A stretch of 64,000 nucleotides of DNA, from positions 6,060 to 70,059 of the forward strand of contig CAYZYG010000002.1 in the NCBI GenBank assembly GCA_964481395.1. The letters run 5' to 3'. Shown piece by piece: positions 3,320-62,523 of this stretch. Position numbers and translations under genes: made by a program. The stretch's first letter is position 1. The number at the start of each line of letters is the position of its first letter. Under the pieces are notes generated by a model that was given only the letters and a program-made list of their open reading frames with translations, was not told where the DNA came from and ran no database searches. The DNA is from an uncultured Vicinamibacterales bacterium. GTDB taxonomy: Bacteria > Acidobacteriota > Vicinamibacteria > Vicinamibacterales > JAKQTR01.

Positions 3320-3435
3320 CCTTCGCCCTCTCGGGCTACGGCGCGGCAAACTGACCGCGCCCTACCGTGACATCGAATGGGGCCTGGGGACATCCACAAC
3401 CGATCCCCGGTCCCCGGTCCCCGGTCCCCGATCCC
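3320..3435 (-). repeat. composite intergenic repeat, type A copy 1 (conserved module + GGGGACATCCACA core + 5 heptads)
   Basis: Near-identical in reverse complement to 54135-54241. About 60 nt align with about 3 mismatches across GACCGCGCCCTACCGTG.CATCGAATGGGGCC.GGGGACATCCACAA.CGATCCCCGGTCCC. Ends in (CGATCCC)(CGGTCCC)x3(CGATCCC) at 3401-3435. Confidence 0.8.
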
Positions 3436-3441
3436 TACGGA

Positions 3442-4584
3442 TTACTTGGCGCCCTGGTAGCTGATCCGGTAGATCGCCCCCGCCAGATCGTCCGACACGA
3501 GGAGCGCGCCGTCGGGCATCACGAGCACGTCCACCGGACGCCCCCACGCGCGGCGGCCCTGAAGCCAGCCCTCGGCGAACGGCTCGTAGCTCATCGCCTC
3601 GTTGCCCTTCAGCTTCACGAGCATCACCCGGTAGCCGATGGGCACGCTCCGGTTCCACGACCCGTGCTCGGCGATGAAGATCTGCTGACGATACTCGGCG
3701 GGGAACATCGCGCCGCCGTAGAACCGCATGCCCAGGGCGGCGACGTGCGGCCCGAGATTGCGCGCGGGCGGGATGAAGTCGCTGCACGGCCGCTTACCGC
3801 CGAACTCGGGGTCCGATATGTTCCCGCCGTGGCAGTACGGATAGCCGAAGTGCTGGTCCTTCGCGGACGCGCGATTCAGCTCGTCCGGCGGCACATCGTC
3901 GCCCATCATGTCGCGACCGTTGTCGGTGAACCACAGCTCCTTCGTGACGGGATGCCAGTCGAAGCCGACGGTGTTCCGCACGCCGCTGGCGAACACCTCA
4001 CGTCCCGTCCCGTCTGGCCTGATGCGCGTAATGGACGAGTACACCGGATCGTCGCGCTCGCAGATGTTGCACGGCGCGCCGACGGGAACGTAGAGGTACC
4101 CGTCCGGTCCGAACGCGATGTACTTCCATCCGTGATGCCGGTCGCTGGGGTAGTTCTCCGTCACGACGACTGGCGCGGGCGGATTCCGGAGTCGCTTCTC
4201 GATGTCGTCGAACCGCTGGATTCGGTTCACCTCGGCCACATACAGGGCGCCATCCCGCAGGGCAATGCCGTTCGGCATGTTGAGGCCCTTCGCGATGGTG
4301 ATCACCTCATCGGCCTTGTGGTCCTTGTCGCTGTCGAGCACGGCGTACACGTTGCCCGCCGTCCGCGTGCTCACGAAGAGCGTGCCGCCGGGGCCCAGGA
4401 CCAGCGACCGGGCGTTCGGCACCTTGTCGGCGAACACGCTGATGGAGAAGCCCGGGGGCAGTCTGATGGTGTCGAGACGGATCGGCGACGCGGCTGGGGC
4501 CTGCGCGCTCACGCTGACAACGAGGGCCACGGCCGACAGCAGCAGCACGGCCAGCACGGCGAACGGAGCTCGATTGGGCATCAC
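3442..4584 (-). CDS. PQQ-dependent sugar (glucose/sorbosone) dehydrogenase family beta-propeller protein, secreted
   Basis: Signal peptide MMPNRAPFAVLAVLLLSAVALVVSVSAQA. Family-typical HHGWKYIAFGPDGYLYV, GVRNTVGFDWHPVTKELWFTDNGRD and GRPVDVLVMPDGALLVSDD. Confidence 0.85.
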   Translation of the reverse strand: MMPNRAPFAVLAVLLLSAVALVVSVSAQAPAASPIRLDTIRLPPGFSISVFADKVPNARSLVLGPGGTLFVSTRTAGNVYAVLDSDKDHKADEVITIAKGLNMPNGIALRDGALYVAEVNRIQRFDDIEKRLRNPPAPVVVTENYPSDRHHGWKYIAFGPDGYLYVPVGAPCNICERDDPVYSSITRIRPDGTGREVFASGVRNTVGFDWHPVTKELWFTDNGRDMMGDDVPPDELNRASAKDQHFGYPYCHGGNISDPEFGGKRPCSDFIPPARNLGPHVAALGMRFYGGAMFPAEYRQQIFIAEHGSWNRSVPIGYRVMLVKLKGNEAMSYEPFAEGWLQGRRAWGRPVDVLVMPDGALLVSDDLAGAIYRISYQGAK

Positions 4585-4654
4585 GGTGACCTCAATCCCA
4601 TTTTCCTCGATTTTCGGTCAGAATGGTCGTGTCCCCCGAAGGACAGAGGCCACG

Positions 4655-6352
4655 ATGAGAACTTCCACGACAGCAATGGTCCTGGCTGCGGCCCTGGCGG
4701 CCGGAGGTGTCATGAGCGGGTGCGCGAACGAACAGCCGGTGTCTCCCCCGGCGGCATCGGAGACGGCCGAACTCGACGCGATGACCGCACGATTCGCGCC
4801 AGTGGAGATCGGCGCCGATCTCTCCGCGCTGCCCGTGAACGAGCGGGAGGCGCTGGCGAAGCTGGTGCAGGCCGGCCGCGTGATGGACGGCCTCTTCCTG
4901 CGCCAGGTGTGGGCGGGCAACGAGGCGGTCCTCTTCGATCTCCTGGCCGACCAGTCGCCGCTCGGCAAGGCCCGGCTGCACTACTTCCTGATCAACAAGG
5001 GCCCGTGGTCCCGCCTGGATCACAACAAGCCGTTCATCCCCGGCGTGCCCGAGAAACCGGCCGAGGCCAACTACTATCCGGCCGGCGCGATGAAGGCCGA
5101 CGTCGAGGCTTGGTTCGCGAGCCTGAAGGAGCCGGATCGCACGGCCGCGACGGGGTTCTTCACGACGATCCGCCGGAAGCCGGACGGCACCTTCACGGCG
5201 GTGCCCTACGCGCTCGAGTACCAGGGCGAGCTGCAGCGCGCGGCGACGCTCCTGCGCGAGGCGGCGGCCCTCACGTCGAACGACTCGCTGAAACGCTTCC
5301 TGACGACACGGGCGGACGCGTTCTTCTCGAACGACTACTACGAGAGCGACGTGGCGTGGATGGAGCTGGACGCGCCGATCGAGCCGACCATCGGCCCCTA
5401 CGAGGTCTACGAAGACGAGTGGTTCAACCACAAGGCGGCGTTCGAGGCCTTCATCACGCTGCGGGACGACGCCGAGACGGCGAAACTCGAGAGGTTCGGA
5501 GGCGAGCTGCAGGGCATCGAGGACAACCTGCCGATCGACCCGTCGCTCCGCAACCCGAAGCTCGGCGGGCTGGCGCCCATCCGGGTCGTGAACGTCATCC
5601 TGGGCGCGGGCGAGGGCAATTCGGGCGTGCAGACGGCGGCGTTCAACCTGCCGAACGACGAGCGGGTGGTGCGCGAGAAGGGCGCGAAGCGCGTGATGCT
5701 GAAGAACGTGCAGGAGGCCAAGTTCAACAAGGTGCTCGTGCCGATCTCGCAGGTCGTGCTGGCGCCCGCGGATCGCGCGAACGTGTCGTTCGACGCGTTC
5801 TTCACGCACATCCTCATGCACGAGTTGATGCACGGGCTCGGCCCGCACGCCATCACGGTCGGCGGCCAGGCCACGACCGTCCGCCAGCAGCTCAAGGAGA
5901 CCTACAGCGCCATCGAAGAGGCGAAAGCCGACGTGTCGGGGCTCTTCGCGCTGCAGTTCCTCATCGACAAGGGCGTCATCGACCGGTCGATGGAACAGAC
6001 GATGTATACGACGTTCCTGGCGTCGGCGTTCCGCTCGATCCGCTTCGGGATCAACGAGGCGCACGGGCGCGGCATCGCCATCCAGCTCAACTACATGTTG
6101 GATGCCGGGGCGTTCGTCGCGGCGGCCGACGGCACGTTCTCGGTGGACGTGACGAAGGTCAAGAACGCGGTGACGGCGCTGACGCGCGACATCATGACGC
6201 TGCAGGCCGAGGGCAGCTACGAGAAGGCCACGGCGCTGATCGCGAAGCTGGCCGTCGTCCGGCCCGAGATCCAGGCGGCGCTGGACAAGCTGGCGAGCGT
6301 GCCGGTGGATATCGAGCCGGTCTACGTGACGGCGGCGGAACTGGGGAAGTAG
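4655..6352 (+). CDS. DPP III-like (M49-related) zinc metallopeptidase lipoprotein
   Basis: ORF 4202..6352 trimmed to ATG 4655. Lipoprotein signal MRTSTTAMVLAAALAAGGVMSGC. HELMHGLGPH plus downstream EEAKADVSG resemble the pentapeptide-type HExxH / EExxAD zinc motifs of bacterial DPP III homologues. Confidence 0.65.
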   Translation: MRTSTTAMVLAAALAAGGVMSGCANEQPVSPPAASETAELDAMTARFAPVEIGADLSALPVNEREALAKLVQAGRVMDGLFLRQVWAGNEAVLFDLLADQSPLGKARLHYFLINKGPWSRLDHNKPFIPGVPEKPAEANYYPAGAMKADVEAWFASLKEPDRTAATGFFTTIRRKPDGTFTAVPYALEYQGELQRAATLLREAAALTSNDSLKRFLTTRADAFFSNDYYESDVAWMELDAPIEPTIGPYEVYEDEWFNHKAAFEAFITLRDDAETAKLERFGGELQGIEDNLPIDPSLRNPKLGGLAPIRVVNVILGAGEGNSGVQTAAFNLPNDERVVREKGAKRVMLKNVQEAKFNKVLVPISQVVLAPADRANVSFDAFFTHILMHELMHGLGPHAITVGGQATTVRQQLKETYSAIEEAKADVSGLFALQFLIDKGVIDRSMEQTMYTTFLASAFRSIRFGINEAHGRGIAIQLNYMLDAGAFVAAADGTFSVDVTKVKNAVTALTRDIMTLQAEGSYEKATALIAKLAVVRPEIQAALDKLASVPVDIEPVYVTAAELGK

Positions 6353-6625: not shown

Positions 6626-8149
6626 GTGACCATGTCCACCTTCTACATCACGACCGCCATCGACTACGTGAACAGCCGGCCGCACCTCGGGACGGCGTAC
6701 GAGAAGATCTCCGCCGACATCATCGCGCGCTACAAGCGGCTCGCCGGCGTGCCGACCTGGTTCCTGATGGGCAACGACGAGCACTCGCTCAACGTGTTCC
6801 GCCGGGCGAAGGAGCAGGGACTCGACCCGAAGGCCTACTGCGATCAGATGGAAGGGGAGTTCCGCGAGGTCTGGCAGCGCCTGGACATCTCGTTCGACGA
6901 CTTCATCCGGACGACCGAGGAGCGCCACCGGGTGGCGGTGACCGCGCTCGTCGAGCGCATTCAGGCCGCGGGCGACATCTACGAAGGGCACTACGAGGGC
7001 TGGTACTGCAATTCGTGCGAGGCGTTCAAGCAGGAGAAGGACCTGGTCGAGGGCCTCTGCCCGACGCACCGGACCAAGCCCGAGTGGATCCGGGAGAAGA
7101 ACTACTTCTTCCGGCTCTCGAAGTACCAGCAGGCCCTGCTCGACCACTACGCGCGACATCCGGAGGCGCTGGAGCCGGAAATCCGGCGCAATGAGATCCT
7201 CAACGTCATCCAGGGAGGGCTCGAGGACATCTCGATCAGCCGCGCGGGGCAGGCCTGGGGCATTCCGCTGCCCTTCGACCCGTCGAGCGTGGTCTACGTG
7301 TGGTTCGACGCGCTCATCAACTACATCTCGGCGCTGGGCTACGGGCAGGACGAGGCGCTCTTCTCGCGGTGGTGGCCGGCCTCGCTGCACATCATCGGCA
7401 AGGACATCACGCGCTTCCACTGTGTCATCTGGCCCGCGATGCTCATGAGCGCCGGCGTGGCCGTGCCGAAGCAGGTGTTCGGCCACGGCTTCGTGTACTT
7501 CAAGGGCGAGAAGATGAGCAAGTCGCTCGGTACGATTGTCGACCCGCTCGAGGCGGCGTCGAAGTTCGGCCCGGACCCGCTCCGCCTCTACCTCGTCCGC
7601 GAGTTCGCGTACGGCCAGGACGGCGACTTCTCGTGGGAGCGCTTCGAGGAGCGCTACAACGCGGACCTCGCGAACAACCTCGGCAATCTCGTCAGCCGCA
7701 TCGCGACGATGGCCGACAAGTACTGCCAGGGTAGGCTGCCGCAGCCGTCCGCGCCGGCCGGGCGTCTCGCGCAGGCGTCGGAGGCCGCGGTCGCATCGTA
7801 CCAGTCGGCGATGGATCGCTTCGCGCTGCAGGACGGGATGGCGGCAGCCTACGGCCTGATCGACGCGGCGAACCTCTTCATCACCGAGACGGAACCGTGG
7901 AAGCTGGCGAAAGATGAAGCCAACGCCGCGCAGGTGAGCCAAATCCTGTACGAGGTCGCCGAAGCGCTCCGGATTGCCGCCATTCTGCTCCTGCCGGCGA
8001 TGCCGTCATCGGCGACCGAGATCCTCCGCCGGGTGGGGTCAACCAAGTCCGGCCTCGGCCATCGGCTCGACGACGCGGTGTGGAATGGGGCGGGAGATCG
8101 CGTGACGATCAAGGCCGATGCGATGTGGCCGAGAATACAACGGCAGTAG
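6626..8149 (+). CDS. metG: methionine--tRNA ligase (short form)
   Basis: Class I aaRS with TTAIDYVNSRPHLGTAYEKISADIIARY (HIGH-like) and KMSKSLG. Zinc knuckle CNSCEAF...CPTH. 507 aa. Confidence 0.95.
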   Translation: MTMSTFYITTAIDYVNSRPHLGTAYEKISADIIARYKRLAGVPTWFLMGNDEHSLNVFRRAKEQGLDPKAYCDQMEGEFREVWQRLDISFDDFIRTTEERHRVAVTALVERIQAAGDIYEGHYEGWYCNSCEAFKQEKDLVEGLCPTHRTKPEWIREKNYFFRLSKYQQALLDHYARHPEALEPEIRRNEILNVIQGGLEDISISRAGQAWGIPLPFDPSSVVYVWFDALINYISALGYGQDEALFSRWWPASLHIIGKDITRFHCVIWPAMLMSAGVAVPKQVFGHGFVYFKGEKMSKSLGTIVDPLEAASKFGPDPLRLYLVREFAYGQDGDFSWERFEERYNADLANNLGNLVSRIATMADKYCQGRLPQPSAPAGRLAQASEAAVASYQSAMDRFALQDGMAAAYGLIDAANLFITETEPWKLAKDEANAAQVSQILYEVAEALRIAAILLLPAMPSSATEILRRVGSTKSGLGHRLDDAVWNGAGDRVTIKADAMWPRIQRQ

Positions 8150-8246
8150 ATATTAGACAGTAGACAGTAGACAGTAGGAAAACAGGAGTCAGGAGACAGG
8201 AGACAGGAGTCAGAAGACAGACAGGGGCCGGGGATCAGGGACCGGG
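8144..8246. repeat. graded heptanucleotide tandem array starting at the metG stop codon
   Basis: Read in 7-nt register as TAGACAG units, then GGAGACA/GGAGTCA, then GAAGACA, then GGGGCCG GGGATCA GGGACCG. The metG TAG (8147-8149) is part of the array. Confidence 0.85.
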
Positions 8247-8261
8247 CGCCAAGTGACGGGC

Positions 8262-8532
8262 GCGTGTCACTGAGCAGCCCCTTGAGCCGAGCCGCCCTCG
8301 CTTGAGTCGGCCGCCATGCCGAGGGGCGGCTCGTCACGCTCGCAGACCCGCTCGCGCTCGCCGGCAAAACGCCTCTCCGTCCCGTTGCGGGCCGCTGGCC
8401 GCCGGCTGCCGCGTCGCGGCCGCGCGCGGGCGCGGCTGCTCTGCGGACGACTGCGCCGGCTGACTCCCTCGTCCTCCGGGGCGTTTTGCAGACTGCCGCC
8501 GTCGGCTCGGCTCGAGGGTCTGCTCGGTGACG
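8262..8532 (+). repeat. type C structured repeat element (copy 1) with an extra inverted partial arm
   Basis: Blocks 8334-8372 (GTCACGCTCGCAGACCCGCTCGCGCTCGCCGGCAAAACGC) and 8478-8532 (GGGGCGTTTTGCAGACTGCCGCCGTCGGCTCGGCTCGAGGGTCTGCTCGGTGACG) recur at 62524-62562 and 62631-62685. Segment 8265-8293 is a reverse-complement copy of 8503-8531. Confidence 0.75.
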
Positions 8533-8587
8533 ACCGCCCCTTTGCGAGTTGCCGAGGCCGGCAGTCGACTCCGGAATCCCGACTGCG

Positions 8588-9724
8588 TCACCCCCGCTTC
8601 ACGGCCCCAATCCCGGGCTTGTCCGTGAGCGTCACCTTGCCGTCGACGACCGTCATGCCGTCGAAGGGATCGTTCGAGATGAGCAGGGCGCCGTCGAGGT
8701 CGGCCCAGTCGACCATCGGCGAGAGGTGCGAGGCCGCCGAGATGCCGCACGAGGTTTCCGTCATGCAGCCGAGCATGACCTTCATACCAAGGCCGCGCGC
8801 GAGCTGGATCATCTTCTGCGCCTCGCGCATGCCGGTGGACTTCATCAGTTTGATGTTGATGCCCGAGTAGACGCCGTGCGCCTTGTGCACGTCGGCCAGG
8901 CGCTGCACGCCCTCGTCTCCGAGGACGGGAATCGGGCTGCGCTCGGTGATCCACGCGAGATCGTCGACGCGCTCCTTCGGCAGCGGCTGCTCGACGTACT
9001 CGAAGCCCTTCTCCTTGAGCCAGTGCAGCATGTCGAGCGCCTGCTGGCGGTCGGTCCAGCCCTGGTTCGCATCGCCCGTCAGGGGAACGCTCGTCACCGA
9101 TCGGATGGCCTCGACCATGGGCTTGTCCGTGTCGCGCCCGAGCTTGATCTTCAGCACCTTGAAGCCGGCGGCCTCACGCGTCTTTTCCCTGACGACCTCG
9201 GGCGTGTCGATGCCGATGGTGAACGTCGTGTAGGGCGTCTTCGTCCGGTCGTAGCCCCAGATGTTGTACCAGGGCTGCTTCATCAGCTTGCCGACGAGGT
9301 CGTGCAGCGCGATGTCGATGGCGGCCTTGGCTGCAGGGTTGCCGGGCGCCAGCCGGTCGATGTCGGGGAGAATCGTTTCCAACTCGAACGGGTTGCCGTA
9401 CGGACTCAGATCGACCTTCGACAGGAACGCCGCGGCCGTCTCGTGCGACTCACCCAGGTACGGTGGCATCGACGCCTCGCCGTAGCCCACGAGCCCCTCG
9501 TACGCGATCTCCGTCAGCATCACGGGCGTCGTCGTGCGCGAACTCGTTGCCAGGGTGAAGACGTGCCTGAGCTGGAGCGTGTACGGCCGGAACGACAGCG
9601 TCATCCGTGGGCTGCCGCCCTGCGTGCGCGAGCCGGACGCCTGAAACCACGGGCCTGTCGGGACGAGCATGGCCGTGCCTCCGATGGCCGACTGCTGCAG
9701 GAATTGACGACGGGTCTGGGACAT
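8588..9724 (-). CDS. dipeptide (L-Ala-D/L-Glu) epimerase, enolase superfamily, with Tat-type signal
   Basis: MSQTRRQFLQQS twin-arginine leader. Mandelate racemase/muconate-lactonising-type motifs KIKLG, GDANQGW, VEQPLP, LGDEG, NIKLMK. Confidence 0.85.
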   Translation of the reverse strand: MSQTRRQFLQQSAIGGTAMLVPTGPWFQASGSRTQGGSPRMTLSFRPYTLQLRHVFTLATSSRTTTPVMLTEIAYEGLVGYGEASMPPYLGESHETAAAFLSKVDLSPYGNPFELETILPDIDRLAPGNPAAKAAIDIALHDLVGKLMKQPWYNIWGYDRTKTPYTTFTIGIDTPEVVREKTREAAGFKVLKIKLGRDTDKPMVEAIRSVTSVPLTGDANQGWTDRQQALDMLHWLKEKGFEYVEQPLPKERVDDLAWITERSPIPVLGDEGVQRLADVHKAHGVYSGINIKLMKSTGMREAQKMIQLARGLGMKVMLGCMTETSCGISAASHLSPMVDWADLDGALLISNDPFDGMTVVDGKVTLTDKPGIGAVKRG

Positions 9725-9744: not shown

Positions 9745-9846
<102 letters not shown>

Positions 9847-11025
9847 CTATGCCCGCCGAATCGCGCGCCGCGCGGTCGCGAACAGTTCATCCGGCGTGAA
9901 GGGCTTGGCCATGTAGTCGCTCGCGCCGCGCTGGATGGCTTCGACCGCGGTGTCGATCGACGCGTAGCCGGTGACCATCACGACGGGCAGCTTCGGCCGG
10001 TGCTTGTGGATCGTCGGCAGCAGCTCGAGGCCGTTGGCGTCCGGCATCTTCATGTCGAGCAGCACGAGGTCGTACATCTCGTTGAGGATGCGTGTGAGTG
10101 CCTCGCGCCCCGAGAAGGCTTCCTCGACCTGGAATCCGCGGCGGCTCAGCGTCCGGCGAATGCTGTTGGCGACGACCGGCTCGTCGTCCACGACCAGGAC
10201 CTTGCGACCGGTCGCCTTCTCCGCGTTCCAGCGCCCGGGGACGGGCATGTCGCCGCGTCCGAGCGCGTCCGCGTAGGCCGGCGACGTCACGGCGGCCACC
10301 TCGGACCAGCTGAACGGCATATCGACGTCGATCTGGTCCTGCAGGTGCTGCATCGTCGCGGCCATGATCGCCTTCCGCCGTTCGGCGGCCAGCAGGGGGC
10401 ACTCGAGCTGCTGGCACACCCCCTTCGTCTTGTAGCGCTTGCAGTGGCGCTGGCCGAGGGCGCAGAAATCGATGACCGTGACATCGGAGCGCGTGAGCTG
10501 TTTGACGAACTGGGGAGACGTGGCTGCGGTGACCTCGGCGGCGTCGAACGGCATGTCGACGTCGATCACCTCGCCCTTCGGCGTCGACTTCACCTTGGGC
10601 TCGCGCTTCGGCGGGGCCGGGGTGGCCGTCCGCGAGCCAGGCTTCATCACGAGCGCGACGTGCGCCAGGGCGGCATCGAGTTCGTCCGGCGTGAACGGCT
10701 TCGGCAGATACCCCGCCGCGCCGGCCCGGGTGGCTTCGATGGCCGACGCGATCGACGCGTATCCGGTCATGATCATGAGCGGCGTCTGTGGCCAGCGGTC
10801 GCGGACGACGCGCAGCAGGTCGAGGCCGGAAGACTGAGGCATCATCAGATCCGCGAGGATCAGATCGAAGGCCGGACCCCTCTCGAGGTACTCGATGGCG
10901 GACGCGACGGAAATCGCCTTCTCCACGTCGTGGCCGCGCCGGGCGAGGATCTTCTCCACGCTCGCGCACACGGACCGTTCATCATCCACCACCAGAATCC
11001 GCTTGGTTGCCGTTGCCGTGCTCAT
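9847..11025 (-). CDS. dual-receiver response regulator with a novel Cys-containing central domain
   Basis: Two CheY-like REC domains (KRILVVDDE...DLMMP...PKPF and RKVLVVDDE...DMKMP...AKPF) flank about 145 aa with no output domain I recognise. The ORF opens at GTG 11034. I prefer ATG 11025, which lies 8 nt after GAGG. Confidence 0.85.
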   Translation of the reverse strand: MSTATATKRILVVDDERSVCASVEKILARRGHDVEKAISVASAIEYLERGPAFDLILADLMMPQSSGLDLLRVVRDRWPQTPLMIMTGYASIASAIEATRAGAAGYLPKPFTPDELDAALAHVALVMKPGSRTATPAPPKREPKVKSTPKGEVIDVDMPFDAAEVTAATSPQFVKQLTRSDVTVIDFCALGQRHCKRYKTKGVCQQLECPLLAAERRKAIMAATMQHLQDQIDVDMPFSWSEVAAVTSPAYADALGRGDMPVPGRWNAEKATGRKVLVVDDEPVVANSIRRTLSRRGFQVEEAFSGREALTRILNEMYDLVLLDMKMPDANGLELLPTIHKHRPKLPVVMVTGYASIDTAVEAIQRGASDYMAKPFTPDELFATARRAIRRA

Positions 11026-11368: not shown

Positions 11369-11470
11369 CGGGATTGGCGATTGCGGATTGGGGGTTGGTT
11401 CAGCTCGAGTCAGCACCACGAAGGGGGACTGGGGACATCCACAACTGATCCCCGATCCCCGGTCCCTGTC
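11369..11470 (-). repeat. composite intergenic repeat, type B copy 1
   Basis: CGGGATTGGCGATTGCGGATTGGGGGTTGG...GAAGGGGGACTGGGGACATCCACAACTGATCCCCGATCCCCGGTCCC. It is the reverse-complement counterpart of 26054-26158 and abuts the stop codon at 11472. Confidence 0.8.
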
Positions 11471-11471: not shown

Positions 11472-12885
11472 TCACTCCTCGTGCCCGAGGCCGCCCCTGA
11501 TCCCGTGCTTGCGCATGAGCATCTGGAAGTTCTGCCGCTGGATGCCGACGTCGGCCGCGGCGTGGGTGACGTTCCAGCCGCTCCGCTCCAGAGCCTCCAC
11601 GACGAATTCGCGCTCCAGGTCGGCCACGGCCCGCTCGCGGAGCTGCCGCTTGAGCGCCAGGAACTCCTGGTTGGTCCTGGGGATGTCGAGATCGGCCGGG
11701 AGGGACTGGCGAGTGAGGACCCGGGGCAGGTGTCTCGGTTCGACAATGTCGCCGTCGCAGGCGATGACGGCGCGCTCGACGGACGCCTCGAGCTGTCGGA
11801 CGTTGCCGGGCCAGTCGTACTGCTCGAGGAGCCGCAGCGCATCTTCCGAGAAGCGATCCACCTGTTTGCCGCTGCGTTCCCGCGCGCGGCCGAGGAGGTG
11901 GCAGGCCAGCAGTGGAATGTCCTCGCGCCGGTCGCGCAGGGGAGGCAGGTAGATGGGGAACACGTACAGCCGGTAGTACAGGTCCTCGCGGAACGTGCCT
12001 TCGCGGACCATCTTCTCGAGATCCCGGTTCGTGGCGAAGACGAGGCGCACGTCCACCTTGCGGGGCTGCGTGCCGCCGACGGGCAGGAACTCGCGCTCCT
12101 GGATGAACCGCAGCAGCCGGGCCTGCACGTCCACGTCGACGTTGCAGATCTCGTCGAGGAACACGGTGCCGCGGTCGGCCGCCTCGAAGATGCCGCGCTT
12201 GTCGTGCACGGCTCCCGTGAACGATCCCCTGACGTGTCCGAACAGCTCGCTCTCGAGCAGGTTGACGGCCAGCGCGCCGCAGTCCACGGCGAAGAAGCGT
12301 TCATGGCGGCGGGGACTCAATGCGTGCACGGCCCGTGCGACGAGTTCCTTGCCGGTCCCCGTTTCGCCGACGATGAGGACGGTGCTCGAAGTGGGGGCGA
12401 CCTTCCGGATGAGCCGGTACACCTCCAGCATCTTGGGGCTGCCGCCCACGAGGCCCGCGAAGATGGCCGGATCCTGGCCAGACGCCGGCGTGATGCCGCG
12501 CGACCGCAAAATCTGCTGACGGCGCTCCCAGGCCTTGCCCGCCACGGCGGCCATTTCGGCCGGGGTGAACGGCTTCGGCAGGTACTCGAACGCGCCGACC
12601 TTCATGGTTTCGACGACCGAGGCGATGGTGGCGAACCCGGTGATGACGACGGGCACGATGTCGGGAAAGCTGCTGCGCAGCACGCCGAGCAGTTCCATGC
12701 CGCCCAGTTCGGCCATCTTGAGGTCCGTGAACACCACGTCGTACGTCCCCTCGGCGAGGTGCCTGAGGGCGTCGGCCCCGCTGGTCACGGTGGTGACGGC
12801 GTAGCCTTCGCGCGACAGGATCTTCTCGCAACTCCGGCAGATGGCCGGCTCGTCATCGACGACCAGCACGCGGGGTCCGTTGAGG

Positions 12886-14996: not shown

Positions 14997-15003
<7 letters not shown>

Positions 15004-15626
15004 GCCCTGAGCCCGTCGTCCCTCGGCCAGGCTCGGGACGATCCCGAGTGTGTCGAAGGGGCGACGGTCGCGGCTTCGTCGGGCAGGCGGAACGCGCCCA
15101 CCCGTACGGTGTCGAGTGCCGCCAGCACCGCGTCTCGCGCGGCGGGCACGGCCTCGGCCACCGCTGTTGTCAGCGCTTCGCCAATCGACTCCATGTCGTC
15201 GACCTCCACCGCAACCACATGGATCCGATCCGGGAGCGGCACGCCCGACTGCCGGCCGAGCCGCATCACCGTGGGCAGACCCGCCGCGTGCGGGGATGGT
15301 CCCGAGTCTCCGCGCAACGCCTCGAAGGGCATCGAGAGGACGGTGCCAGGGGGATGCGAACCCGTCCGCACGGCATCGACGACGACGGCGGCATCGAAAC
15401 CGGTCAGCTCGTCGAGAAGGTAGAAACCCGAGAGCGGGGTCTTACGCACGACGACTGACTGGGACCGGGGACCGGGGACCAGGGACCAGGTCAGTCTCGC
15501 TTCCACCGCGTCCGCGACGGCCCATCCGACGCCATCGTCGCGCAGCAGGTCGTTCCCAAGGCACAGCACGACGACTGCGCCTTCGGCACAACTGGTCCCC
15601 GATCCCTGGTCCCCGGTCCCTGTCAT
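14997..15626 (-). CDS. [NiFe]-hydrogenase maturation endopeptidase (HybD/HycI/FrhD family)
   Basis: ORF trimmed to ATG 15626, which forms an ATGA overlap with the large-subunit stop. VVVLCLGNDLLRDDGVGWAV and VVVDAV...PGTV motifs. The N-terminus and an internal loop are encoded by heptad repeats. Confidence 0.85.
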
Positions 15627-18066: not shown

Positions 18067-18067
18067 G

Positions 18068-18487: not shown

Positions 18488-18538
18488 GGGCCTGGCTCCT
18501 GTCCTTCGGCGCGGGACCCCGGTCCCGCGTCCGGGCGG

Positions 18539-47558: not shown

Positions 47559-47676
47559 GCGGACAGCCGATCCTCGTTCGGGACCCTGGATCCGGGATCC
47601 GGGGTCCGGGACCCGGTGCTGCACGGCACAGGAGCCTGGGACGGGCGACGACAGGGCTGGTGGTGACACGATGTTG

Positions 47677-47742
47677 ACCCCCGCTCTAGAGCGGGTCTAC
47701 TCCGGGGCAACTCCGGGATGAGACCCGCTCTAGCGCGGGGGT
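47677..47742. terminator. long hairpin between convergent genes (possible bidirectional terminator)
   Basis: ACCCCCGCTCTAGAGCGGGTCT (47677-47698) and AGACCCGCTCTAGCGCGGGGGT (47721-47742) are reverse complements with 1 mismatch in 22. The loop is 22 nt and there is no U-tract. Confidence 0.4.
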
Positions 47743-47757
47743 GTTCGGCCGGAGCGC

Positions 47758-51291: not shown

Positions 51292-51299
51292 GGACGGTG

Positions 51300-51429
51300 G
51301 ATCAGTTGTCAGTTATCAGTTTTCAGTTCTGAGTTCTGAGCATGGAGTTCAACTGACAACTGACAACTGCTAACTGATATCTGATTACTGACAACTGCTA
51401 ACTGAGAATTGAAAACTGACCACTGAAAT
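51300..51429. repeat. AT-rich inverted heptad arrays (CAGTTNT)n / (NNAACTG)n upstream of pgsB
   Basis: About 6 units of nnnCAGT are followed, in the same 7-nt register, by about 12 units of nnAACTG. CAGT and ACTG are reverse complements, so the arms can pair. The GC content is far below the window norm. Confidence 0.85.
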
Positions 51430-51437
51430 CCCGTGCC

Positions 51438-54107: not shown

Positions 54108-54134
54108 GGGCGGGAGTCGGGAGTCGAAGAACGA

Positions 54135-54241
54135 GGATCGGGGATCCGGGACCGGGGATCGCTTGTGGATGTCCCCTGGCCCCATTCGATGGCACGGTAG
54201 GGCGCGGTCCCCGACCGCGCCGCGTGGCGCCGGAGCGAAGG
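54135..54241 (+). repeat. composite intergenic repeat, type A copy 2
   Basis: GGATCGGGGATCCGGGACCGGGGATCGCTTGTGGATGTCCCCTGGCCCCATTCGATGGCACGGTAGGGCGCGGTC... is the reverse complement of 3320-3435. It lies 3' of typA with the G-rich strand as sense. Confidence 0.8.
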
Positions 54242-54513: not shown

Positions 54514-56811
54514 ATGCCGCGCCTGCGATTCGCCCACTGGGCTACAGCCGTGCTTGTGCTCGCCGCCTGCCTCCCCGCGTCGGCGCAGGGGCCGGTCGCG
54601 CCCGGCGAGCCCCCGTCCATTGCCGGGCCCGTGCCGGTGCCGCCGGCCACTGTTGCCCGCGACGATGCCGGCCGCGTCACGGTCCGTGCCGTGCGCCTCG
54701 ACACGGCTCTGCGGGTCGACGGCCGTCTCGACGATGAGGTCTACCGACAGACGGCTCCGATCGACGGGTTCCTCCAGCAGGAGCCCCGCGAAGGCGAAGC
54801 CGCCAGCGAGACCACCGAGGTCTGGCTGTTCTTCGACGACACCGCCGTCTACGTGGCCGCCCGGATGCACGACACCCGGGCCTCGGAGATCGTCGCCAAC
54901 GAGATGCGCCGCGACAGCTTCAACATCTTCCAGAACGACAACTTCGGGGTCATCTTCGACACCTTCCACGATCGGCGCAACGGGTTCTTCTTCTACACGA
55001 ACCCGGTGGGCGGCCTGTCGGACCAGACGGTGACGGACGAGCGCGAGAGCAACCGCGAGTGGAACACGGTGTGGGAGTGCCGGACGACGCGCGACGATGA
55101 GGGATGGAGCGTCGAGATGGCCATCCCGTTCAGGTCGCTCCGCTACCCGCGGCCCGGCGCGCAGCTTTGGGGGGTCAATTTCCGCCGCACGATCCGCCGA
55201 CGCAACGAGATGTCGTACCTGACTCCGATCCCGGCGGCGTACGGCCCACGCGGCATGCAGCGGCTGTCGTCCGCGGCGACGCTGGTCGGGCTGGTGGCGC
55301 CTCCATCGTCGCTGAACCTCGAAGTCAAGCCGTACGCCGCCTCAGCGCTCCGGACGGACAACGAGGCCGAGCCCCCGGTGTCGAACGAGCTCGATCCGAA
55401 CGTCGGCATCGACCTGAAGTACGGCGTGACGCAGGGGCTCACCGCGGACTTCAGCGTCAACACGGACTTCGCCCAGGTGGAGGAGGACGAGCAGCAGGTG
55501 AACCTCACGCGGTTCAGCCTGTTCTTCCCCGAGCGCCGGGATTTCTTCCTCGAGGGGATGGGCATCTTCGCCTTCGGCGGCGCGGGGGGCAGCCCGCGTG
55601 GCGGCGGGGGAGGGCCCCCGTCGAACACGCCGGTGCTGTTCTACAGTCGCCGCATCGGCCTGCAGGAAGGCGAGACGATCCCCATGCGGTACGGAGCCCG
55701 GCTCACCGGGAAGGCCGGCCCGTACTCGATCGGCTTTCTCGACGCGAGGACCGCCGAGCGGGATCTCGAGGAGGGCCACGCGTATCCGACGAACTTCCTC
55801 GTGGCGCGCGTGAAGCGCGACATCCTCAGACGCAGCTCGATCGGCGCGATCGTCACCCGGCGCGGGCCGTCGGTTGACGGACTTGCGGCGAACTACGCGT
55901 ACGGCGTCGACGGGAACTTCGTCTTCTTCCAGAACCTGACCGTCGACGCGTTCGTCGCGAAGAGCGAGACGCCCGGACGGACGGGCAACGCCACGAGCTA
56001 CCGCGGGGCGCTGGATTATGCCGGCGACCGCTACGGCCTCCGGATCGAGCAGTCGCATGTCGGGCCCGACTTCAATCCGGAAATCGGCTTTCTCCGGCGC
56101 GAGGACTTCGACCGATCGTTCGTGCAGGGACGCTTCAGCCCGCGGCCTTCCCCTCCGTCGCGCATTCGCAAGTACCAGTTCGAAGTGTCGGCGGACTACT
56201 TCGAGAACACCGCGAACGTCGTCGAGACGCGCGAGTTCCAGGGGCAGTTCAGCCTGGAGTTCCAGAGCGGCGACGAGTGGAGCGTCGACGTCACCCGCAG
56301 CTACGAGTACCTGGACGAGCCGTTCGAGATTACCGAGGGCGTCTTCATTCCCGTCGGCGGCTACCACTACACCGCCGGGCAGACGTCGCTTCGCCTCGGA
56401 CCACAGCGGAAAGTGTCGGGATGGCTGTCTGCCGGCTACGGGCAGTTCTTCGACGGCACGCGGGCGGAGGCCAGTTTCCGGGGCCGGGTCGAACTGACGC
56501 CGAAGCTCGCCGTGGAGCCGGGCCTGGCGTTCAACTGGATCGACCTGCCCGCGGCGGCGTACCGCACGGACCTGCTGTCGGCCCGCGTCAACTATGCGAT
56601 CTCGCCGCGGACGATCCTGAGCGGGCTGGTGCAGTACAACTCCAACGCGAGCGCGATCAGCTCCAGCGTCCGCTTCCGCTGGGAGTACCGGCCCGGCAGC
56701 GACCTCTTCCTGGTGTACTCCGAAGGGCGCGACACCTCGCTGCCGCACGAGCCGCCGCGCCTCGCCAATCACAGCCTCGCGGTCAAGTTCACGCGCCTGT
56801 TCCGCTTCTGA
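54514..56811 (+). CDS. CBM9-like / DUF5916-type outer-membrane-associated protein
   Basis: ORF trimmed to ATG 54514 (MPRLRFAHWATAVLVLAACLPASAQ). LRVDGRLDDEVYRQTAPIDGF...VWLFFDDTAVYVAARMHD is CBM9-like. Long beta-rich C-terminus ends in FTRLFRF. Confidence 0.7.
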   Translation: MPRLRFAHWATAVLVLAACLPASAQGPVAPGEPPSIAGPVPVPPATVARDDAGRVTVRAVRLDTALRVDGRLDDEVYRQTAPIDGFLQQEPREGEAASETTEVWLFFDDTAVYVAARMHDTRASEIVANEMRRDSFNIFQNDNFGVIFDTFHDRRNGFFFYTNPVGGLSDQTVTDERESNREWNTVWECRTTRDDEGWSVEMAIPFRSLRYPRPGAQLWGVNFRRTIRRRNEMSYLTPIPAAYGPRGMQRLSSAATLVGLVAPPSSLNLEVKPYAASALRTDNEAEPPVSNELDPNVGIDLKYGVTQGLTADFSVNTDFAQVEEDEQQVNLTRFSLFFPERRDFFLEGMGIFAFGGAGGSPRGGGGGPPSNTPVLFYSRRIGLQEGETIPMRYGARLTGKAGPYSIGFLDARTAERDLEEGHAYPTNFLVARVKRDILRRSSIGAIVTRRGPSVDGLAANYAYGVDGNFVFFQNLTVDAFVAKSETPGRTGNATSYRGALDYAGDRYGLRIEQSHVGPDFNPEIGFLRREDFDRSFVQGRFSPRPSPPSRIRKYQFEVSADYFENTANVVETREFQGQFSLEFQSGDEWSVDVTRSYEYLDEPFEITEGVFIPVGGYHYTAGQTSLRLGPQRKVSGWLSAGYGQFFDGTRAEASFRGRVELTPKLAVEPGLAFNWIDLPAAAYRTDLLSARVNYAISPRTILSGLVQYNSNASAISSSVRFRWEYRPGSDLFLVYSEGRDTSLPHEPPRLANHSLAVKFTRLFRF

Positions 56812-57238
56812 GAACAGGGACCGGAAACCGGGGATCGGGGGCCAGGTCCGACACTGCGAGTCGAGAGTCGGCCGTTCGACTCGCTGGCGCTCGCTCAGCC
56901 CACCCTGCGGTTCGACACGCTCGCCGCTCCCTGAGCCGGTCGAAGCGTGAGTCTGGTCGAGGGGCGGTTCAGCGCTTTGACAGCAGCCTGCGGCGCCGTG
57001 TTCCCTGCCGCCTGTCGCCTGATCCCTGTCGTGCGGATTCCGAGGTCGGTGCTCGGAGTTCGGCGTGCGGTCGGCCAACCCTTTGCTCAGCTGCGGCGTC
57101 TAATACGGGCAAGCTGGCCTTGCGCCCCCTCACGCCTGGAATGACGGGGCATCGCCCAGCCGGGTTGTCGCGCCCGGCGTTGCGCCCCGGCCGCGATCCA
57201 TCCCGCCCGTTGGCATCGTTCGGTGAGGGAGCGCCTTC

Positions 57239-58561
57239 ATGAGGAAGCGTCTTGCGGTTGGGGGCCTGCTGTACCTGTGCGTTGTCTGGCCAGCCGTTCT
57301 GGCGGCGCAACCGCCGCCGCCCCCGCCGCCTCCGGAACCGCCCCGCATCCAGCAGATCGAGGGCCGGGTCAAGGTGTTCATCGACTGCCGCTGGTCGTGC
57401 GATTCGGATTACATTCGGACCAACCTGACGTTCGTCGATCACGTCCGCGATCGCGAGGCCGCCGACGTCCACATCCTCGTGACGGGACGTTCCACCGGGG
57501 CCGGCGGGAGCGAGGTCACACTGTCGTTCATGGGCCGGGGGCCGTTCGAGCGTCTCGACGATACGCTGCTGGCGATCATCCCGCCCAACGCGGCATCGGA
57601 CGCCGTGCGTGCCGCCCTCGTCCTGAAGCTGAAGGTGGGACTTACACGGTACGTCGCCCATTCCAGCGAGTCCGACACGCTCCGTGTGTCGATCGAGGCG
57701 GCGAAGACCCAGGCGGCACAGCAGCCGGGCCACGATCCGTGGGACCACTGGGTGTTCCGCATCCGCGCCAATGGAAGCGTGAGCGGTGAGGAAGCCTCGT
57801 CGTACCAGTCCTATTCGGGGGGCGTGTCGGCCAACCGGGTGACGGATGCCTGGAAGGTCAGTCTGTCGGGGAGCGCGTCGTATCGTCAGAGCTCCTACGA
57901 CCTGGGAGACGAGGATCCCTACGTGAGCATCTCGCGCGATTCGAGCGCGAGCGGGCTGATCGTGAGAAGCCTCACCCCCCACTGGTCGCTCGGCGCGCGC
58001 AGTTCGGTGAGCTCGTCGACCTACTCGAACCGGAGGCTGCAGATTCACGCCGCGCCGGCCATCGAGTACAACATCTTTCCGTATAGCGAGTCGACGCGCC
58101 GGTCGTTGACGATCCAGTACGGTATCGGCGTGACGTCCACCGACTACTTCGAAGAAACCCTCTACGGCAAGGCATCCGAGACGCGTCCGGTCCATACGCT
58201 GAGCGCCGATATCGAGGCGCGCCAGCCGTGGGGCCAGGTGAGCGCCAGCGTGGATGTCTCGCAGTACCTGTCGATGATGGACAAGTACCGCGTGCAGTCG
58301 TGGGGCATGATCGATCTGCGAATCAAGAAAGGGCTGTCGTTCAACGTCGGCGGAGGCGCGTCCTGGATCCGCGACCAGATCAATCTGCCGCTGGGGGAGG
58401 CCACAGACGAGGAGATACTGGTGCGCCAGCGCCAGCTCGCGACGGCCTGGGACTACTCCGTGTACTTCGGCATCTCCTACACCTTCGGATCCATCTACAA
58501 CAACATCGTGAACCCGCGGTTCGGAAGCTCGGGCGGCGGGGGGATGGTCGTCTACTACTGA
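57239..58561 (+). CDS. hypothetical outer-membrane beta-barrel-like protein
   Basis: SD GAGGGAG. Signal peptide MRKRLAVGGLLYLCVVWPAVLAAQ followed by a poly-Pro linker. The C-terminal two-thirds show alternating-hydrophobic beta-strand patterns. No family name recalled. Confidence 0.55.
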   Translation: MRKRLAVGGLLYLCVVWPAVLAAQPPPPPPPPEPPRIQQIEGRVKVFIDCRWSCDSDYIRTNLTFVDHVRDREAADVHILVTGRSTGAGGSEVTLSFMGRGPFERLDDTLLAIIPPNAASDAVRAALVLKLKVGLTRYVAHSSESDTLRVSIEAAKTQAAQQPGHDPWDHWVFRIRANGSVSGEEASSYQSYSGGVSANRVTDAWKVSLSGSASYRQSSYDLGDEDPYVSISRDSSASGLIVRSLTPHWSLGARSSVSSSTYSNRRLQIHAAPAIEYNIFPYSESTRRSLTIQYGIGVTSTDYFEETLYGKASETRPVHTLSADIEARQPWGQVSASVDVSQYLSMMDKYRVQSWGMIDLRIKKGLSFNVGGGASWIRDQINLPLGEATDEEILVRQRQLATAWDYSVYFGISYTFGSIYNNIVNPRFGSSGGGGMVVYY

Positions 58562-58841
58562 CGCTCACGGGGACCGGGGGCCGGGGACCGGGGACCGGTT
58601 CTGCGACGACAGCCACGAGGCGGACCGCGAGGCGATCGGGTCTGGTGCCGCCGGCCGTCCGCCGAGAGCTGGGCTCACTCGAGTGAATCCCGGTTCGTGT
58701 CAACAGTGGAGTCCGGCTGGTATTATGGCCAGACGAACCGGGATCTGGAAGTTAGGGCCCCGGATCGGGGTGCTGACCGGCTCGAGTTTCCGATCCCCGA
58801 TCCCCGATCCCCGGTCCCCGGCCCCCAGAGGATGCGCGGAG

Positions 58842-59699: not shown

Positions 59700-59854
59700 G
59701 ACGGGGGTAGGAGCCAGGAGTCAGAAGACAGAAGACCGAAGGCGGCCGCCACGCGAGAAGGGCCGACGCAATCGCGCCGGCCCCTGCCGCTGTCGACGAG
59801 TTGTCCGGGCCTACCGGCGGGGCACATCTGGTCCCCGGTCCCCGGTCCCTGTCC

Positions 59855-61303: not shown

Positions 61304-61376
61304 ATCGGAGCTCCTTAAGAAAGTGCGCCCGAATCGGGGTCCAACGGCGGGGCTCTTGAGACTGTAGCACGGAGAA

Positions 61377-61499
61377 CAGGGACCTGGGACCGGGGATCGG
61401 GGGCCGGTTCTGAATGGGGCGCCGGTCCCCGATTCCTGCTCTTGGTCCCTGGTCCCTGGTCCCCGTTCCTGGTCCCTGGTCCCCGGTCCCCGATCCCTG
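61377..61499. repeat. inverted G-rich / C-rich heptad arrays in the pepD-aminopeptidase divergent gap
   Basis: CAGGGACCTGGGACCGGGGATCGGGGGCCGG (61377-61407) is followed by CCGGTCCCCGATTCCTG...GGTCCCTGGTCCCTGGTCCCCG...GGTCCCCGGTCCCCGATCCCTG (61421-61499). Confidence 0.85.
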
Positions 61500-61503
61500 C
61501 ATA

Positions 61504-62475
61504 ATGCCCCCTATGCACATCTCCTCCGAACTCCAGTCCGCCGCCCTCATCGCCGTCCGGGACTGCATGGGCGTCCAGCCCGGCGAGCGGGTGCTCGTCG
61601 TGACCGACGCGCCGCTCCGGACCATCGGATACGCCTGCCACGAGGCTGCCCGGCAGCTCGGCAACGAGGTCATGCTCATCGACATGCCGCCCCGCAGGAC
61701 CAACGGCGAAGAGCCACCCGCCGAAGTGGCCTGGTTGATGACCCAGGTGGACGTCGTCCTGTGCCCGACCTCCAAGTCGCTCACCCACACCGACTCGCGC
61801 CGGTCCGCGAGCGCCAAGGGGGTCCGCGTGGCCACCCTTCCGAACGTCACAGAAGAAGTGATGATCCGCTGCATGAACGCCGACTACCACGCCATTGCCG
61901 AGCGCACCCACCGGCTGTGCGACCTCTTGCGCGACACGAAGGTCGTGCGCGTGACGGCACCGGCCGGCACGGACATCACCATGCCCATCGAGGGCCGGGA
62001 ACCGCACGCCAGCTCGGGCATCTTCCGTGAGAAGGGGCAGTGGGGGAACCTGCCAACCGGCGAAGCCTACTTGGCGCCCCTCGAGGGACTCTCGAACGGC
62101 GTGGTCGTGGTCGACGGGTCCATGGCCAGCGTCGGCATGGTCGACGAACCCATCCACATCGTCGTCAACGACGGATATGCGGCCGACATCACCGGCGGCG
62201 CGTCGGCTCACAGGCTTGTCGAGCTGCTGGCCCCGCACGGGAAGGACGGCCGGACGGTCGCCGAGTTCGGCATCGGCACCAACGACAGGGCCATCCTGAC
62301 GGGCATCATCCTCGAAGACGAGAAAGTGATGGGCACCATCCACATCGCCTTCGGCGACAACAAGTCGATGGGCGGCAGCGTACGCGTGGCGAGCCACCTC
62401 GACGGCCTCGTCAAGCAGCCGACCGTCTGGTTCGACGACCGGAAGATCATGGAGGACGGGAGGCTGCTCGTCTGA
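61504..62475 (+). CDS. aminopeptidase, AmpS/PepS-like (M29-related, COG2309 type)
   Basis: ATG 61504 (an alternative is 61513). NLPTGEAYLAP, VVVDGS, FGIGTN and GTIHIAFGDN. Confidence 0.78.
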   Translation: MPPMHISSELQSAALIAVRDCMGVQPGERVLVVTDAPLRTIGYACHEAARQLGNEVMLIDMPPRRTNGEEPPAEVAWLMTQVDVVLCPTSKSLTHTDSRRSASAKGVRVATLPNVTEEVMIRCMNADYHAIAERTHRLCDLLRDTKVVRVTAPAGTDITMPIEGREPHASSGIFREKGQWGNLPTGEAYLAPLEGLSNGVVVVDGSMASVGMVDEPIHIVVNDGYAADITGGASAHRLVELLAPHGKDGRTVAEFGIGTNDRAILTGIILEDEKVMGTIHIAFGDNKSMGGSVRVASHLDGLVKQPTVWFDDRKIMEDGRLLV

Positions 62476-62523
62476 CGGCGGGGACCCGGGACCCGGGGCC
62501 GGCGCCGCCGCGGCGAGCCGTGC

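Follow-up and report, generated by a model that had tools for sequence, protein, structure and literature searches.

Strand-polarised heptanucleotide arrays at gene ends in a genome of the Acidobacteriota

We analysed a 64,000-nt stretch of contig CAYZYG010000002.1 (assembly GCA_964481395.1, uncultured Vicinamibacterales bacterium), below called the window, in which short tandem arrays of 7-nt units recur at the ends of genes. The source organism belongs to the Acidobacteriota and is close to the Vicinamibacterales; its TypA protein is 91% identical to that of a metagenome-assembled genome (MAG) named as an Acidobacteriota bacterium and about 83% identical to those of Vicinamibacterales. Proteins of the window were matched in metagenome assemblies only. 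The G+C content is 68-69% throughout the window, and therefore open reading frames (ORFs) alone are useless for a gene map: in such DNA stop-to-stop ORFs overrun neighbouring genes. The gene map was built from codon-position GC (GC-frame analysis) and confirmed with Pfam. The coding share of the window is 89.4%, the non-coding share 10.6%, and the polarity counts given below for the window rest on this curated map.

The initial annotation of the window described 7-nt arrays at more than twenty loci. Tandem Repeats Finder (TRF) recovered arrays at practically all of them, with sequences that read as described. In a scan for self-similarity at fixed offsets, 15 arrays had period 7 and none had periods 4-6 or 8-12; at a looser threshold the numbers were 18 at period 7 and 0 at other periods. 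There are at least six unit families. The G-rich units GGGGACC, GGGGATC, GGGACCC and GGGATCC fit the pattern GGGNAYC, that is, a conserved G tract with an A/T-containing spacer, and the arrays mostly contain 3-5 G-runs. The families listed initially are real, and four more had been overlooked: NAACTGA (51301-51426), AACTCNN (43941-43972), GGGATTG (11370-11398 and 26130-26160) and GGGATTC (30712-30743). Two of the loci need correction. The array at 33030-33062 is reported by TRF; it is weak, with 73% matches and no strand skew. The array at 15459-15490, listed as lying at a gene end, is situated inside the coding sequence of a HycI-family protease gene on the minus strand.

Almost all array segments (33 of 35) are wholly non-coding. 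Within intergenic gaps of at least 100 nt their position is strongly non-uniform (Kolmogorov-Smirnov test, p = 6e-11). At 17 gene 3' ends, out of approximately 47 in the window, an array begins 0-21 nt past the stop codon; the exception is lutB, where the distance is 63 nt. In three of the 17 cases the array runs over the end of the coding sequence. Without exception, the sense strand at these 17 ends is the one rich in G or purines (binomial p = 1.5e-5); the initial annotation had listed 16 such ends. In all six convergent gaps the array adjoins the gene for which the sense strand is G-rich. Arrays located at most 30 nt before a start codon follow the opposite rule: all three in the window, 9745-9783 (MR_MLE), 58790-58826 (rhomboid) and 61421-61499 (M29), are pyrimidine- or C-rich on the sense strand. 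This part of the initial description stands, with one correction: the true starts of the rhomboid and M29 genes are 15 nt and 4 nt downstream of the latter two arrays, and with these starts the gene lengths match those of orthologues. Inverted pairs always have the G-then-C (convergent) order (8/8). The numbers of arrays that are G-rich on plus and of those G-rich on minus are about equal, and the orientation is aligned with gene direction; therefore the polarity tracks transcription, not replication. A replication-strand bias was rejected on these grounds.

The arrays and their surroundings are as follows.

3353-3435, minus strand: element with a (GGGGAYC)5 array at 3401-3435, 6 nt past the stop of a GSDH-like gene and G-rich on the minus (sense) strand; after the array the RNA continues with the conserved core GUUGUGGAUGUCCCC plus 35 nt of flank.
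8144-8246, plus strand: CAGTAGA/CAGGAGA purine arrays overlapping the MetG stop, then, at 8216-8246, a GGGGNNC array; on the sense strand the whole is rich in purines or G.
9745-9846: composite gap; a G-array at 9812-9846 on the minus (sense) strand, 0 nt past the stop of the dual-receiver gene, then a loop and two C-rich units; at 9745-9783 a pyrimidine-rich array (reverse complement of CAGRAGA), 20 nt before the MR_MLE start.
11370-11470, minus strand: G-array at 11446-11470, 1 nt past the NtrC-like stop, then the core GUUGUGGAUGUCCCC and the reverse complement of a GGGATTG array at 11370-11398.
15459-15490, plus strand: array within the HycI-family protease coding sequence (minus strand), C-rich on the sense strand and encoding a loop with 7 extra residues.
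15592-15622, minus strand: G-array 0 nt past the mvhA stop, filling the junction of mvhA and the protease gene.
26054-26160, plus strand: (GGGGAYC)4 19 nt past the Rrf2 stop, then the core GGATGTGGATGTTCCC and a CCAATCC-type array.
30712-30743, minus strand: GGGATTC array in the gap between lutB and lutC, 63 nt past the lutB stop; the sense strand is G-rich.
37267-37292, minus strand: G-array 0 nt past the stop of a quinone oxidoreductase-like gene, with the tail GGTTCTG.
39476-39519, minus strand: six units in the gap between the divergent AKR and ACAD genes; the ACAD sense strand is the C-rich one, and the array lies 89 nt upstream of the ACAD start.
41783-41820, plus strand: CAGTAGA array encoding the last 8 residues of the ACAD-like protein and its TAG stop.
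43752-43795, plus strand: (GGGACCY)6 13 nt past the tag stop; self-complementary, with a predicted hairpin fold (z = -2.8).
47580-47616, plus strand: GGGAYCC array 21 nt past the stop of the radical SAM gene.
51301-51426, minus strand: inverted pair of NAACTGA type between the SDR stop and the CapB start, with a predicted fold (z = -3.4); on the minus (sense) strand the (NAACTGA)n array at 51301-51340 ends 9 nt before the CapB start.
54089-54209, plus strand: TypA 3' end; the last codons AACAGGGACCGGGGC are array-derived and are followed by (GGGAGTC)2, an array at 54136-54160, the core CTTGTGGATGTCCCC and the conserved flank.
56817-56847, plus strand: G-array 5 nt past the CBM9/DUF5916 stop, with the 5' flank TGAGAACAGGGACC.
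58569-58598, plus strand: (GGGGACC)4 7 nt past the hyp440 stop, with the tail GGTTCTG.
58790-58826, minus strand: array with its C-rich strand on plus (sense), 15 nt ahead of the rhomboid start and downstream of a promoter-like site at 58697-58726.
59705-59740, plus strand: CAGRAGW purine array 5 nt past the rhomboid stop.
59828-59854, minus strand: G-array 0 nt past the stop of the M20 dipeptidase (pepD-like) gene.
61377-61499: inverted pair in the divergent pepD/M29 gap, with 61377-61407 G-rich on plus and 61421-61499 C-rich on plus, the latter ending 4 nt before the M29 start; predicted fold with z = -5.2.
62477-62502, plus strand: GGGACCC array 1 nt past the M29 stop.

The G-rich arrays have conserved ends. 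The motif ACAGGGAYC occurs eight times in the window, always at the start of an array; four copies directly follow a stop codon, and the copy at mvhA overlaps the TGA stop. Seven of the 39 GTTSTG hexamers of the window stand directly after an array, and five arrays run on into the core GTTGTGGATGTCCCC. The fragments 3353-3433 and 54129-54209, one being compared as the reverse complement, are 90% identical over 81 nt and belong to two unrelated gene ends. Sequence conserved beyond the repeat at many intergenic sites is what is expected of a dispersed element similar to repetitive extragenic palindromes (REP) or MITEs (miniature inverted-repeat transposable elements). Thus in this genome arrays are carried in short dispersed elements with conserved flanks, which is new here. 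We infer from comparison that the G arrays form the body of an element with the 5' end GRACAGGGAYC and the 3' end RGTTSTG, with or without GATGTCCCC. No conserved U/T-rich tail was observed after G arrays among 130 arrays from other phyla; the GTTSTG tail is thus specific to this genome and mirrors copying within it rather than a universal signal. The composite core GGGGACATCCACAASYGATCCCC had no matches in JGI metagenomes. Rfam gave no match for the whole window at the gathering threshold, nor for the region 8240-8590 at E-values up to 1. Pfam scans found no transposase or reverse transcriptase among the ORFs of the window, and there are no tRNA genes in the window.

REP palindromes, the bacterial interspersed mosaic elements (BIME) and MITEs are short, genome-specific intergenic elements, often located past stop codons and in inverted pairs; in 3' untranslated regions (UTRs) they stabilise the upstream mRNA. 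The elements described here are likewise short, intergenic and dispersed, lie past stops and form inverted pairs. They differ in that the body is a tandem heptamer array and not a single imperfect palindrome, that no cognate transposase is seen in the window, and that the short hairpins of the arrays are no more stable than those of shuffled sequences.

The window also contains two copies of a MITE-like element (8332-8532 and 62523-62685), in which blocks 95% and 93% identical flank a variable middle. The copies have imperfect terminal inverted repeats CGTCACGCTCGCAGACCC and GGGTCTGCTCGGTGACG and an inner stem formed by GCCGGCAAAACGC with GCGTTTTGC, and have no match in Rfam. Both are situated downstream of arrays at gene ends.

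The arrays enter coding sequences. The ACAD-like protein ends in the array-encoded residues QEIADSRQ, and its stop codon is the TAG of a CAGTAGA unit (41783-41810), whereas AAGYPL or ALGYPL is the C-terminus in relatives. In typA, array sequence makes up the last five codons (54089-54107). In one relative, L124, the TAG of CTAGRGG units serves as the stop codon of two genes, those of SacDH and TypA (6252-6299 and 11843-11878). The HycI-family hydrogenase maturation protease (14997-15626, minus strand) contains the array 15459-15490 in frame; in an alignment with E. coli HybD (1CFZ) it has 7 extra residues in the array-encoded loop, corresponding to 21 nt, i.e. three units. Invasion of the ends of coding sequences and of one loop is a new observation. 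At the junction of mvhA and the protease gene, which the array 15592-15622 fills, an ATGA start/stop overlap may exist, so that translation of this array is conceivable. Units of 7 nt that contain TAG provide stops in all three frames over three units.

Such arrays also have practical consequences: they break short-read assemblies, and gene callers extend ORFs through them, as with the rhomboid and M29 starts and the TypA start of the relative L121. Three Logan contigs of the same strain (L001-L003; window interval 56669-58819) are 99.9-100% identical to the window, and two contig ends fall at arrays (58599 and 58819). Samples that contain this strain include DRR859393 and SRR15237800. No variation in copy number was found in these three contigs, whose sequence at the arrays included in them does not differ from the window; this constancy is due to their coming from the same strain.

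Seven syntenic relatives, with TypA identity of 83-91% to the window, were compared using their own gene calls. Their period-7 units are diverse: GGGATTC, GGGGATT, CTAGRGG, GGGACAT, CAGTAGA, GCTCGGG, AGAAGCA, GAACCGT and CCAGGTT. Past stop codons, eight of their arrays are G/purine-rich on the sense strand, one is poor and one is neutral. All five arrays at most 30 nt before a start are C/pyrimidine-rich on the sense strand, making eight of eight together with those of the window. Two of the relatives, L122 and L123, have no arrays in 22 kb. The 3' end of hyp440 carries (GGGGACC)4 in the window, (GGGATTC)6 in L120 and (GGGGATT)9 in L125. Unit numbers at orthologous gene ends do differ: at the pepD 3' end the window has three and L120 has 1.5-2, while the element and its flank are shared. 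Therefore arrays stay at a site while their copy number changes and the unit gets replaced. That the relatives have arrays at matching gene ends with matching polarity and different units, and that some of them have no arrays, is new as well. In L121 (GCA_964396055.1), the gaps are dense in other short repeats (regions 9773-10000, 5354-5396 and 16907-17088), among them GGCCGTT-type heptamers, a period-8 version GGCCTGAC/GGCCTAAC and GCCCCAT units that extend into the called TypA start.

At larger evolutionary distances, four GGGAYCN units were sought in 185,579 species genomes, and at least 116 loci had them. Among the matches listed, 48 are from Acidobacteriota (many of them Vicinamibacterales), 19 from Lysobacterales/Xanthomonadaceae, 13 from Actinomycetota, 7 each from Chloroflexota and Planctomycetota, 6 from Cyanobacteria and 3 from Gemmatimonadota; other Proteobacteria (7) and singletons of other groups together account for 13 loci. 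The blastn program found no close relatives of the window among these 116 matches. Of the 228 period-7 arrays in the listed loci, 84 have units other than the GGGAYC type; any other period from 4 to 12 is represented by 0-15 arrays. Thus the conserved feature is the period of 7 nt, not the sequence of the unit. Next to stop codons, as given by crude ORF calls, the sense strand is purine-rich in 38 arrays and purine-poor in 12; in the loci from other phyla the polarity is a trend. Arrays of four GGGAYCN units were also observed in 55 viral contigs (L127-L181, IMG/VR), which may represent prophages, host fragments or phage DNA.

The window arrays very probably belong to an already known class of heptanucleotide simple-sequence repeats, judging by unit and placement: the GGGNATC type and the tandem heptanucleotides of cyanobacteria. 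The suggestion in the initial annotation that repeats of this kind are undescribed does not hold: GGGNATC heptamers with the same position and strand rule have been reported (PMC4692102). Rehm et al. (2015, PMC4692102) described repeats of GGGAATC for Xanthomonas and of GGGGA(C/T)T for Nostoc, spread genome-wide, with an intergenic share of 89-93% in Xanthomonas and 68% in Nostoc. Up to 50 bp past a stop their G-rich strand is the coding strand, and up to 50 bp ahead of a start it is the non-coding one. Four units are preferred, convergent inverted pairs are frequent in Xanthomonas, stop codons may be overlapped, length and sequence differ between related species at the same gene pairs, and there is no link to a functional class of genes. 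The oligonucleotides fold as G-quadruplexes (G4) in vitro, and in Xanthomonas the starts or stops of transcripts fall at G4-capable repeats more frequently than at control sites (PMC4692102).

The arrays of the window agree with these repeats in the 7-nt unit with a tract of 3-4 G and A at position 5, the strong intergenic bias, the strand rule past stops and before starts, the overlap with stops, the convergent pairs, the number of about four units with a mode of 3-4 G-runs, the variation at the same gene pairs and the lack of a preferred class of genes. They differ in the host (Acidobacteriota), the dominant unit (GGGGAYC), and the conserved non-repeat flanks and the behaviour of a dispersed element. 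Moreover, in the window G-rich arrays coexist with purine-only and NAACTGA heptamers obeying the same rule. G4 formation was measured for the GGGNATC repeats, whereas here it is predicted from the motif count and the G4 option of ViennaRNA, described below.

An excess of heptanucleotide repeats in bacteria was noted by Mrazek et al. (2007), together with the idea that 7 nt mirrors the footprint of the polymerase, and three tandem heptanucleotide families are known in the cyanobacterium Calothrix (both as cited in PMC4692102 and PMC4679880). As far as they are presented there, these long simple sequence repeats (LSSR) and Calothrix families share with the window arrays the dominant period of 7, the presence of several families per genome, the intergenic location, the patchy distribution across phyla, and 7-nt-biased replication slippage as the proposed origin. 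The polarity rule at stops and starts and the conserved flanks are not in those descriptions, so far as cited. A further parallel is provided by TAACTGA direct repeats, which lie a few bases upstream of start codons in marine Beggiatoaceae, Cyanobacteria and Bacteroidetes (MacGregor 2015, PMC4679880). The NAACTGA arrays of the window (51301-51426) likewise stop 9 nt short of a start codon when read on the sense strand; they differ in the taxon, which is new for this unit, in forming an inverted pair, and in being a minor family beside G-rich units. NAACTGA-type heptamers have so far been reported from Beggiatoaceae, Thiocystis, Cyanobacteria and Bacteroidetes, and the window is from an acidobacterium. 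A literature search for heptamer repeats of this kind in Acidobacteria found no paper.

The RNA of the array regions was then considered. The fit to the G4 motif claimed initially is real: (G3+N1-7)x4 motifs occur 16 times in the window compared to 6.4 +/- 2.3 expected, a 2.5-fold excess, and 14 of the 16 are inside arrays. With the G4 option of ViennaRNA switched on, a G4 fold is preferred at three gene ends, and in most others the G-array pairs with the trailing C-rich units or with itself. Three regions have predicted structures more stable than those of dinucleotide-shuffled sequences: 61370-61503 (z -5.2), 51292-51437 (z -3.4) and 43739-43800 (z -2.8). Canonical terminators consisting of a hairpin and a U-run were found at chance level in a scan of the window (18 sites, 18.6 expected), none of them at array-bearing gene ends. 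The tails that follow arrays, such as GUUSUG, are not the U-tracts of intrinsic terminators.

Hairpin terminators without a U-tract have been proposed for high-GC bacteria. The chance level of canonical terminators is compatible with this type of termination. As in intrinsic terminators, a predicted stable G+C-rich RNA structure lies right past the stop at the ends of transcription units. The arrays differ from them in having no U-tract, and some arrays are unstructured or are situated within operons.

We start from the observed anatomy, polarity, turnover and dispersal of the arrays and extend these by a putative transcription, folding and effect. The resulting scheme, in which slippage-prone heptamers of a known class are carried on a dispersed element and have a role at RNA 3' ends, is tentative, and we consider the whole chain possible rather than probable; the 3'-end role itself is plausible. 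Consistent with it are the polarity past stops and before starts, which tracks transcription, the excess of G4 motifs, the predicted G4 folds and hairpins, the chance level of canonical terminators and the Xanthomonas transcript ends. Arrays would grow and shrink in 7-nt steps by slipped-strand mispairing, and the unit would be homogenised within an array, both steps being suggested by the comparison of relatives. Such homogenisation would explain why relatives hold an array at the same gene end while its unit drifts (GGGGACC, GGGATTC, GGGGATT). The three-unit length of the array in the HycI-family coding sequence favours slippage. The element with fixed ends would have multiplied over many intergenic gaps of this genome and would press on coding sequences, swapping a few C-terminal codons, donating stops and persisting in frame in a surface loop. 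Arrays would be retained only in untranslated spacers, as purine/G-rich RNA right past stops and as pyrimidine/C-rich RNA before starts; near starts only the latter orientation may be kept, because a G-rich structure at the ribosome-binding site would block initiation. Transcription of the post-stop arrays would make them the opening bases of the 3' UTR and would place the G/purine-rich strand in the RNA, which could fold as a G4 or as a G:C hairpin with the trailing C-rich units. The fold would then act as a dispensable barrier at the 3' end, either as a polymerase pause or terminator without a U-tract, or as a block to 3' exonucleases.

Several observations weigh against this scheme. The hairpin model is not supported for five short composites, whose z-scores are -0.1 to -1.5, with two positive. 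The purine array in the 3' region of MetG is essentially unstructured as RNA (-9.8 kcal/mol over 98 nt), and purine-only arrays share the polarity. Indeed, the polarity rule is also obeyed by the non-G4 families CAGGAGA and CAGTAGA (also CAGAAGA), a fact new here. Some units of the relatives (CCAGGTT, GAACCGT, AGAAGCA) have no G4 potential either. Since purine-only arrays and the non-G4 units of relatives follow the rule, G4 formation is not a general explanation and can be at most a part of it. Two arrays, between mvhA and the protease gene and between lutB and lutC, are internal to operons, where a strong terminator would be harmful. Close relatives have the same genes without arrays, so any function has to be generic and dispensable. 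The start codons of the curated map are partly uncertain. Finally, Rehm et al. found no regulatory role for their repeats (PMC4692102).

One alternative is a selfish or neutral dispersed repeat that has bloomed in this lineage and is tolerated as junk in spacers, the polarity arising from transcription-oriented insertion or copying, or from orientation-dependent purging. The conserved flanks and the near-identical 81-nt copies at unrelated genes indicate copying, and the uneven density of arrays (17 of about 47 gene ends in the window and 0 in L122 and L123), the invasion of coding sequence ends and of a loop, the lack of a conserved 3' tail in other phyla and the presence of arrays in 55 viral contigs all favour this explanation. 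However, purging alone does not explain why the C-rich orientation never occurs beside a stop, even in convergent gaps, with nothing downstream (6/6), and the same polarity is seen in other genomes and phyla whose units are unrelated. Neither a transposase nor a reverse transcriptase is present among the ORFs of the window in the Pfam scans, and Rehm et al. found no link to mobile elements (PMC4692102). On balance, we regard this explanation as unlikely. Still less likely is a mutational origin coupled to transcription, where the ribosome-free, purine/G-rich RNA past a stop would form R-loops, the displaced G-strand would fold, and slippage would expand the sense strand. Purine-rich transcripts are prone to form R-loops. 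By this single property, purine-rich RNA, the model covers both the G-rich and the purine-only families, and it explains both the array starts 0-7 nt from the stop and a polarity that tracks transcription rather than a DNA strand. It leaves unexplained the opposite polarity upstream of starts, which are likewise untranslated (8/8), and the conserved non-repeat flanks.

Two further models invoke a dedicated factor. A protein that binds single-stranded RNA or DNA could read heptads, with the unit co-evolving in each genome; candidates suggested for TAACTGA repeats are S1, cold-shock proteins and CsrA. The maintenance of period 7 while the sequence changes, the use of a small set of units at many loci per genome, the GGA within most units, and the NAACTGA arrays ending 9 nt before a start as in Beggiatoaceae agree with protein binding. 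In sequence, the purine units are similar to the CAGGA(N)G repeats found in CsrB. On the other hand, there is no candidate protein, several unrelated unit families exist in one genome, and some relatives have no arrays, so that we hold this model to be decidedly improbable. A dedicated machinery common to many phyla, either a templated addition or copying of 7 nt at gene ends along transcription or a heptad-reading protein co-evolving with the units, would be compatible with the period of 7 that is kept as the unit changes, with the separate unit set of each genome, and with fixed ends that abut stops in one orientation. If so, an undescribed system would produce the arrays or act on them, and they would not be passive products of slippage; we consider this very doubtful. 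Least credible, and in our opinion extremely unlikely, are contingency loci, with changes in copy number switching the adjoining genes (phase variation). The copy number does vary among relatives, and a few arrays lie 4-20 nt upstream of starts. However, most arrays are located past stops, and the genes concerned are housekeeping ones (metG, typA, tag, hydrogenase); promoters and 5' coding regions of surface genes are not where they lie. Across the covered arrays, the Logan contigs from this strain show no difference from the window. The same conclusion was reached by Rehm et al. for their repeats (PMC4692102).

Any explanation, including the scheme of slippage-prone arrays on a dispersed element with a 3'-end role, is constrained by three facts. 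The polarity rule holds for units unable to form G-quadruplexes; arrays persist at orthologous gene ends while the unit sequence is replaced; and in this genome a short dispersed element with fixed ends carries the arrays and intrudes on coding sequence. The Calothrix tandem heptanucleotide families mentioned above are known as short tandemly repeated repetitive (STRR) sequences. Heptamer repeats were noticed first in cyanobacteria, then in the broad survey of 2007 and in 2015 as GGGNATC. The present data extend their host range to the Acidobacteriota, a large and poorly studied soil phylum.

Some other features of the window deserve mention. The AACTCNN array (43941-43972) is situated directly upstream of the only good sigma-70-like promoter of the window, TTGACA-17-TAGAGT, which precedes blaI (region 43941-44013), and a perfect tandem repeat of 21 nt x2 is found nearby at 43888-43931. 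The gap that separates the radical SAM gene from its convergent neighbour holds a palindromic element (47670-47757). The genes at 15623-25082 on the minus strand form an MvhADG-type [NiFe] hydrogenase cluster with NuoF/NuoG-like subunits and HdrABC-like proteins, and the gene of an Rrf2 regulator is divergent to it; possibly, this cluster is an electron-bifurcating module in an acidobacterium.

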